Positions 32,602 to 32,846 are shown, numbered from the stretch's first letter. The stretch is 64,000 bases of DNA from an uncultured Clostridium sp. (GCA_900557195.1 USRT01000004.1:18133-82132); one strand, 5' to 3'. The notes: generated from the letters alone by a model not told the origin. Translations and numbers: made by a program.

Positions 32602-32664
32602 AAAAATTATAAAAATTATAAAATTTATAAAAATTATAAAAATTGTGAAAATCGTGAAAATTGT
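32602..32664. repeat. Seven tandem copies of a 9-bp unit (AAAAATTAT, degenerating to GAAAATTGT)
   Basis: The units read directly are aaaaattat x2, aaaatttat, aaaaattat, aaaaattgt, gaaaatcgt, gaaaattgt. The array abuts the left end of element A. Confidence 0.85.
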
Positions 32665-32846
32665 AGAGTAGTCCATGTGTATTTATATATAAAAATGCAG
32701 TGATGCGCAGTTTGGGAGGACACATACTCATACAGATTAGCCAGATTAACTGTTCAAACAATGAAATTTGTACATATCCACTCATATGACTAGTCCGACC
32801 AGCAAAGAACGGAATTTTTATATATAAATACACATGGACGGACTAA
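32663..32846 (+). repeat. IR-bracketed intergenic element, copy A (about 184 bp; 24-bp terminal inverted repeats 32673-32696 / 32814-32837)
   Basis: CCATGTGTATTTATATATAAAAAT ... ATTTTTATATATAAATACACATGG. The internal blocks GCAGTGATGC, TCATACAGATTAGCCAGATTAAC and TAGTCCGACCAGC are shared with copy B at 40262-40450 in the opposite orientation. Confidence 0.8.

Follow-up and report, generated by a model that had tools for sequence, protein, structure and literature searches.

Correia elements contribute to genome plasticity; they duplicate TA, pair their 26-bp terminal inverted repeats (TIRs) as the stem, and contain an IHF site as well as promoter elements. The C. difficile switches are single-locus systems in which a tyrosine recombinase acts at conserved repeats and an adjacent gene is controlled. 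MITEs in general are AT-rich, enter AT-rich intergenic DNA and yield stable stem-loop transcripts; Correia-containing transcripts are cut by RNase III at the TIRs, and QMITE2 has a core, TIRs and direct repeats of 7-9 bp (PMC10969869). The bcr1 repeat of the Bacillus cereus group is MITE-like, with 5-bp direct repeats, and is transcribed and marked by compensatory changes (PMC3184786).

The family of Clostridium repeats described here, of which we analysed two copies (A and B) in detail, resembles bcr1 in several respects, the latter being a non-coding Firmicute repeat of about 155 bp with short direct repeats, a fold kept by compensatory changes and a distribution that is not conserved between close strains (PMC3184786). 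It differs in having 8-bp duplications in place of 5-bp direct repeats, and in folding as a single rod, whose internal stem is AT-rich and 25-31 bp long, rather than as a cruciform with two stem-loops. No sequence similarity to bcr1 was detected, the sole near Rfam hit being a chance-level Bacillus sRNA (E = 9.6), and transcription, demonstrated for bcr1, is putative for the Clostridium family. With the Correia/NEMIS elements of Neisseria the family shares small size, an intergenic setting and inverted-repeat bounds, and it would share the long hairpins of Correia transcripts (PMC10969869). The Clostridium elements, however, have their paired AT-rich stem in the interior, duplicate 8 bp and yielded no promoter in the scans. 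The ERIC/IRU and QMITE elements are likewise AT-rich, intergenic, imperfect palindromes of 100-300 bp with stable predicted transcript structures (PMC10969869). Their hosts, however, are Proteobacteria, they have no sequence similarity to the Clostridium family, and the core of the latter is common to subfamilies with completely different arms and subterminal parts. The flagellar and cwpV switches of C. difficile and the gut invertons are comparable in placing a segment of about 150-300 bp between inverted repeats in the intergenic DNA of Clostridia, and one locus related to our family (L011-type) is found in both orientations; the Clostridium element is, in contrast to the switches, dispersed and transposable, with copies A and B each in a single orientation.

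The window, a 64-kb (64,000 nucleotide) stretch of DNA from an uncultured Clostridium sp. with a G+C content of 26.5%, is ordinary chromosome, carrying a tmRNA, tRNAs and housekeeping genes. Three of the latter each appear split into two overlapping or adjacent ORFs (a pepP-like peptidase, 5755-6826; typA/bipA, 36503-38327; ffh, 58270-59476), which may be assembly frameshift errors or pseudogenes. At 55109-56112 lie divergent genes for a LexA/CI-like repressor (HTH_3 + Peptidase_S24) and a Cro-like HTH protein (DUF739), a pair that resembles the remnant of a prophage-type switch.

An initial annotation of the window had reported two related intergenic copies sharing a series of named blocks, A at 32663-32846 (+ strand) and B at 40262-40450 (- strand), and our alignment confirms the relationship, with 86% column identity. 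The shared 23-mer TCATACAGATTAGCCAGATTAAC and the 21-mer arm TGTGTATTTATATATAAAAAT are confined to A and B within the 64-kb window, where 0.00 and 0.13 matches, respectively, would be expected from dinucleotide shuffles. A covariance model finds A, at 155.7 bits (match 32689-32821, +), and B, at 120 bits (match 40288-40423, -), and no third family copy in the window, the next match reaching 19.6 bits. We rejected this match (13707-13818) as a third copy because it is an unrelated palindrome. The palindrome itself (13705-13837) is long and separate, lies between the gene for the transketolase C-terminal part and an ftsE-like gene, and gives a weak match to the model on two strands; the two arms, GTGTCAAAAGTGTCAAAAGGGACGGAGCATATTGACAC and its complement, are each about 40 bp long and consist of 9-bp GTGTCAAAAG repeats found only there.

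The arms of A and B were previously described as 24-bp AT-rich terminal repeats bounding an element of about 185 bp. They are instead the internal stem, P1, of a rod-like fold, and the interval first delimited covers only the inner part of a larger element: homology between the copies, the true terminal repeats and the duplications all lie 40-85 bp beyond these arms. In both copies the internal arms measure 31-32 nt and are complementary at 94%, pairing 32671-32701 with 32809-32839 in A, and 40269-40300 with 40411-40442 in B, where on the - strand 40411-40442 is the 5' arm and the 32-nt stretch 40269-40300 the 3' arm in element orientation. Within the arms of A, 32671-32696 (+), the segment first taken for a TIR, is a perfect 26-bp complement of 32814-32839 (+), and the two enclose a core at 32697-32813 (+) comprising helices P1b, P2, P2b and P3 and an apical region, as delimited by alignments, RNAalifold and pair counts. 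The compensatory arm change between the copies, CCATGTG/CACATGG in A and GCCTGTG/CACAGGC in B, is as first described. The statement that neither copy encodes an ORF holds for conserved ORFs; a mechanical 77-aa ORF (32600-32833, -) does overlap copy A, and is not conserved in B.

Strain comparison provides direct evidence that copy B is a mobile element. On contigs encoding an identical rubredoxin protein (8 places among those listed for 20 contigs), rubredoxin is separated from the following gene by 186 nt in five (L072, L074, L075, L077, L078) and by 442 nt in the remaining three (L073, L076, L079), as in the window. Alignment of these near-identical strains shows that empty and filled sites differ by a clean 256-bp insertion accompanied by a duplicated AGATATA(G/T), which in empty sites occurs once. 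The empty site joins AAGATATAG directly to GGAGACTC, and the filled site reads, in order, AAGATATAG, GTTACCACTCAGC...GAGTAATAAC(AG), AGATATATG and GGAGACTC. The comparison places the full 256-bp MITE at 40224-40479 (-), reading on that strand from GTTATTACTCA... at 40479 to ...TGAGTGGTAAC at 40224, with the left target-site duplication AGATATAG at 40216-40223 (single in empty sites) and the right one, AGATATAT, at 40482-40489, matching at 7/8 positions with an offset of 2 nt. Copy B is a recent insertion, polymorphic among strains.

Copy A has a different history. The full MITE occupies about 32578-32885 (+) and has an outer inverted repeat with decayed ends, ATTACTATTTAA (32579-32590) and TTAAATACTAAT (32874-32885) being 92% complementary; in strain L065 its 5' end reads GTTACTATTTAAAC, which resembles the family TIR. 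The copy was found in 8/8 strains examined (including L064-L070), in one orientation throughout, and is an older, fixed, partly decayed copy. Its 5' subterminal part contains a 9-bp minisatellite (32601-32662, +; Tandem Repeats Finder) made of about 6 units of TAAAAATTA followed by about 2.6 of AAAATCGTG, whose copy number varies by strain, the array being longer in L064 and L066 and missing from L065.

Across the family the elements are about 235-310 bp long and have no conserved ORF; lengths between identifiable ends, core-less elements included, are 121-256 bp. The terminal repeats are GTTACnnnTCAG...GTAAC, and the end consensus, drawn where independent copies stop being similar, is 5'-GTTAC[C/T]nGT[C/T]CAG ... 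CTGAnnnGTAAC-3'. Termini of the form GTTAC...GTAAC are common to the main family, a second subfamily (subfamily 2) and core-less elements, and the divergent copies at the L011-type locus, L016 and L027 are without recognisable GTTAC ends. The duplications that the initial annotation had suggested looking for are present and are 8 bp long. Among 12 elements with identifiable ends, the 8-bp flanks match at 8/8 positions in three (L049, L048_3 and the core-less element of L036, L036-mini; flanks AATAAATC, TTATTATT and ATTACTTT) and at 7/8 in a further three (L036, L051 and L024-mini), the chance of a match of at least 7/8 being 0.0033 per element. Like copy B, with its 2-nt shift, L015 and L044 have offset duplications, matching after a shift of 1 nt; in L024 and L047 the flank duplication is missing. 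The duplicated target is AT-rich and of varied sequence.

Two elements with family ends and duplications lack an intact core: a 128-bp deletion derivative in L036, and a 121-bp element in L024 with an unrelated interior. The core is thus cargo that is not needed for mobility. The window has a further core-less mini element, a hairpin of about 70 bp at 39893-39962 (+) with the ends GTTACAAGTCAG...GACTTGTAAT, which lies upstream of rubredoxin and whose 5' end is present in 8/8 strains (L072-L079), and a solo end-like remnant, GTTACCAGCCAGTCTAAA, at 57765-57782 (-), at a locus where L024 has a full core-bearing copy. Because the window keeps this remnant, we rejected the comparison of its 57.77-kb region with L024 as a clean empty-site comparison.

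No transposase or recombinase was found in the window, either by eye or in ten unclear ORFs searched against Pfam, and no transposase in the flanks of about 45 loci (8-14 kb in size). Nor did we find an autonomous IS with matching ends in the window, the locus flanks, plasmid records or among the collection matches listed. Duplications of 8 bp are made by the IS6, IS256, ISL3, IS1595 and IS66 families, which are possible leads to the enzyme. A DDE-type transposase encoded elsewhere would bind the ends, make 8-bp staggered cuts and insert the element into intergenic DNA.

The initial annotation had also suggested searching for further copies. Exact-motif scans of genome and metagenome collections with an 18-19-mer from the core retrieved about 35 more among the matches listed, chance hits removed, in uncultured Clostridia and Clostridium MAGs and in human-gut and other metagenome contigs. 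Retrieval with that exact 18-19-mer inflates the invariance of the core motif, which does vary in copies that were found independently (L048_2, L067, L070, L073-L079). The covariance model, built from 25 copies, scores all of them at 109-158 bits. A core of about 120 nt is common to all aligned copies, and the long flanking stem differs greatly in sequence between lineages and is almost always perfectly complementary. At least four copies occur in one MAG and three within 8.4 kb in L048, where all three belong to the second subfamily together with L036, L051, L044 and L047. The copies are not syntenic (the positions in L019 and L024, for example, are non-syntenic) and sit in either orientation between housekeeping genes, the neighbours, named by eye from translations, including cysS, argS, ileS, ackA, infB/nusA, rplM/rpsI, tsf/pyrH/frr, relA/recJ and V-ATPase subunits.

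Outside these chromosomal settings the searches were negative. BLAST searches gave no match, either for copy A (plasmid and phage records) or for the full B element and one subfamily-2 copy (plasmid records); in viral contigs the core-motif scan gave chance hits only, and the scan with subfamily-2 ends nothing. Matches to main-family ends in 11 small GC-rich viral contigs (L080-L090) were rejected as an unrelated motif without a partner end. These contigs share a conserved intergenic motif, GTTACCAGTCAGCCTTAAACGCACGCACCCCTGACTGGGTCAGCC, that agrees with the MITE end along 18 nt only. We also rejected a small protein or type-I toxin as a product of the element: a frame of 25-29 codons (VMRSLGG..IQISQIN..) is open in many copies, but no SD precedes it, several copies have lost its start, 1-nt indels shift the frame in L016, L019 and L027, and stops interrupt it in most of subfamily 2. 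At the L011-type locus (10 orthologues) the element diverges by about 1.1% and the mostly coding flanks by 1-4%, a difference too weak to call purifying selection on the element.

RNAalifold predicts a single rod in which the long AT-rich P1 is followed by P1b, P2 (UUGG/CCAG), P2b (GGAC/GUCC) and P3 (UCAUA/UAUGA), capped by an apical region of about 52 nt that contains the conserved CAGAUUAGCCAGAUUAACU and about 30 nt of variable sequence, the latter usually forming, by eye, a small hairpin with a YGAA loop. P1, core and ends together make the whole element a rod-like hairpin, and the full B element (261 nt) folds as one long hairpin. Standard pairs occupy 95.4% of cells, against 35-44% in controls with 3' partners slid by 1-3 columns, and the covariation score is 0.326, against 0.02-0.07 in the slid controls. 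Both-sided changes are found in 17/34 pairs, and none of 500 shuffles reached the observed pairing or covariation values. The compensatory changes noted in the arms of A and B extend strongly across the whole family in pair counts. Indeed, P1 pairs covary across the family, P2b is compensated from GC/GC to AU/AU (17:8), columns 49/157 from U-A to C-G (12:10), and in subfamily 2 the tandem G-A of GGGAGGAC/GUCCGACC becomes fully Watson-Crick in GGUCAAAC/GUUUGACC. As the compensatory changes generalise across the family, the conserved single-strand fold is real. The same pairing disposes of a suggested anti-SD motif: GTCCTCCCA is the complement of UGGGAGGAC, which forms one strand of helices P2/P2b, and we reject an anti-SD or SD role of GGGAGGAC, a paired motif that changes by covariation to GGUCAAAC in subfamily 2.

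Evidence on the strand that the fold serves is weak. Copy A gives z-scores of -7.0 and -5.6 for its two strands relative to shuffled controls, and the full B element -6.2 as RNA and -5.9 as DNA. G-U pairs outnumber A-C pairs by 37 cells to 2 in the inner helices on the copy-A + strand, and by about 10 to 6 when the whole fold is counted as columns, a count by which the strand asymmetry is weak.

The choice left by the initial annotation, between a structured RNA and a MITE, can now be weighed. The MITE alternative stood: with empty and filled sites, 8-bp duplications, GTTAC...GTAAC termini and dispersed copies, we consider it very probable that A and B are copies of a dispersed non-coding MITE family, which forms one part of our best joint explanation. 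It is extremely unlikely that A and B resemble each other by chance or merely through the low complexity of AT-rich intergenic DNA, as the low G+C of the window and the AT-rich arms might suggest, since no match to the shared 23-mer is expected from shuffles and covariance-model scores are 120-158 bits over about 45 copies. Of the structured-RNA alternative only the conserved single-strand fold survives. Were the element a free-standing multi-copy sRNA gene with its own promoter and an AT-rich closing stem, its copies being paralogues, this would fit the strong covariation in five helices, the G-U excess of the inner helices, the replacement of the P2 tandem G-A by Watson-Crick pairs in subfamily 2 and the fold z-scores of -7.0 and -6.2. 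The empty and filled sites, duplications and terminal repeats nevertheless show transposition, scans found neither a sigma-70-type promoter nor an intrinsic terminator in or at the element, and the copies have no orientation bias relative to flanking genes (about 10 sense, about 11 antisense). Rfam 15 gave no match at the A and B sites at the gathering score (only the tmRNA and tRNAs elsewhere in the window) and chance-level hits at the elements at E up to 10 (ncr1575, snoR24 and others). In addition, the G-U excess rests on few independent events, and the opposite strand of copy A folds nearly as well (-55.2 vs -56.2 kcal/mol), so that such a gene appears highly improbable. A hairpin that a Y1 (HUH) transposase moves in the form of single-stranded DNA, in the manner of REPIN/RAYT or IS200/IS605-derived elements and with the fold as its substrate, would explain why pairing rather than sequence is conserved, why the whole element is rod-like as DNA too (z = -5.9), and the modest strand asymmetry of wobble pairs. 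Y1 transposases, however, are not known to make target-site duplications, and they insert beside a short specific motif. This reading is contradicted by the 8-bp duplications, which are of varied AT-rich sequence and accompany conventional terminal inverted repeats, also in core-less elements with the same ends, and we give it very little credence.

Exchange between dispersed copies appears to produce chimeric arms, possible rearrangement junctions and small inversions, and the last of these bear on whether the element is an inverton, whose repeats are invertase sites and whose core flips to switch a neighbouring gene. At the copy-A locus, L067 and L070 have a chimeric element with a B-type 5' half and an A-type 3' arm (about 2200-2400), and their upstream genes differ (Fic, MazE, PemK and RNase H in L067; rplM and rpsI in L070); these junctions could reflect rearrangement through the repeat, or metagenome misassembly. 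In L045 the arms are mismatched, coming from two subfamilies. At the L011-type locus a 281-bp element-bearing segment is inverted in 2/10 assemblies (L041 1357-1637 and L050 1678-1957, compared with L053 1441-1721) between 37-bp inverted repeats, AAAAATTCGGGATTAGGGGCCACTACACAAAATCCC, each of which resembles a bidirectional terminator hairpin, and in L048_3 (subfamily 2) the core is flipped relative to the subterminal sequences. Both observations are as expected of an inverton, yet rare inversion between perfect repeats of 25-37 bp is possible without a dedicated enzyme. No inversion of A or B was seen, A being in one orientation in 8/8 assemblies and B in 4/4 filled sites, and at least 12 main-family copies keep the orientation of the core relative to the outer frames. 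The arm sequences, unlike a recombinase site, are not conserved, the core has no promoter, and there is no recombinase gene in the window; a dedicated switch is therefore most improbable.

The fold of these MITE copies may matter as RNA or as single-stranded DNA, or may simply reflect palindrome correction. DNA-level palindrome correction could be an alternative source of the double changes in the long stem, and our best guess is that the long P1 arms owe their perfection to replication-linked quasi-palindrome correction, a process that fits P1 because long perfect arms of varied sequence are expected from it without selection. The short, loop-separated inner helices are harder to explain by correction, which points to selection on a single-stranded form as what would keep them. 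Read-through transcripts are the most likely single-stranded form, for with no promoter or terminator at the element and no orientation bias an RNA form would arise from read-through. In such transcripts the hairpin, being double-stranded RNA, would signal processing or stability in the manner of Correia elements and bcr1. Copy B follows the rubredoxin stop codon and precedes a terminator-like hairpin (about 40491-40520) that was read by eye and not called by the scan tool; if this hairpin is a terminator, B is almost certainly transcribed, as the bottom strand.

A further, rather doubtful possibility is that the core is a functional structured RNA module hitch-hiking on the MITE. The core contains P1b, P2, P2b and P3, three GAUUA repeats and the apical YGAA-loop hairpin, and inspection by eye suggests that UUUGG could pair alternatively with the apical CCAGA or the 3' CCAG. 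It is kept across subfamilies with completely diverged arms and ends, is retained in copies without transposon ends (L011-type, L016, L027), and in one species sits in a small invertible segment.

The family is an ordinary kind of bacterial repeat whose inner part is unusually well conserved, with a hairpin-like fold that is kept. With it, low-GC gut Clostridia, which are missing from a recent review of prokaryotic MITEs (PMC10969869), gain a MITE type. The family also marks strain-level insertion polymorphisms, such as copy B beside rubredoxin/FprA, and probably gives rise to assembly breaks, chimeric joins and small inversions in MAGs. Its long perfect hairpins in UTRs may alter how the mRNAs of neighbouring housekeeping genes are processed. 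Only the core, conserved and covarying, could exceed the ordinary: were it an RNA module, a regulatory or catalytic RNA would be spreading through the genomes of gut Clostridia by way of a transposon.
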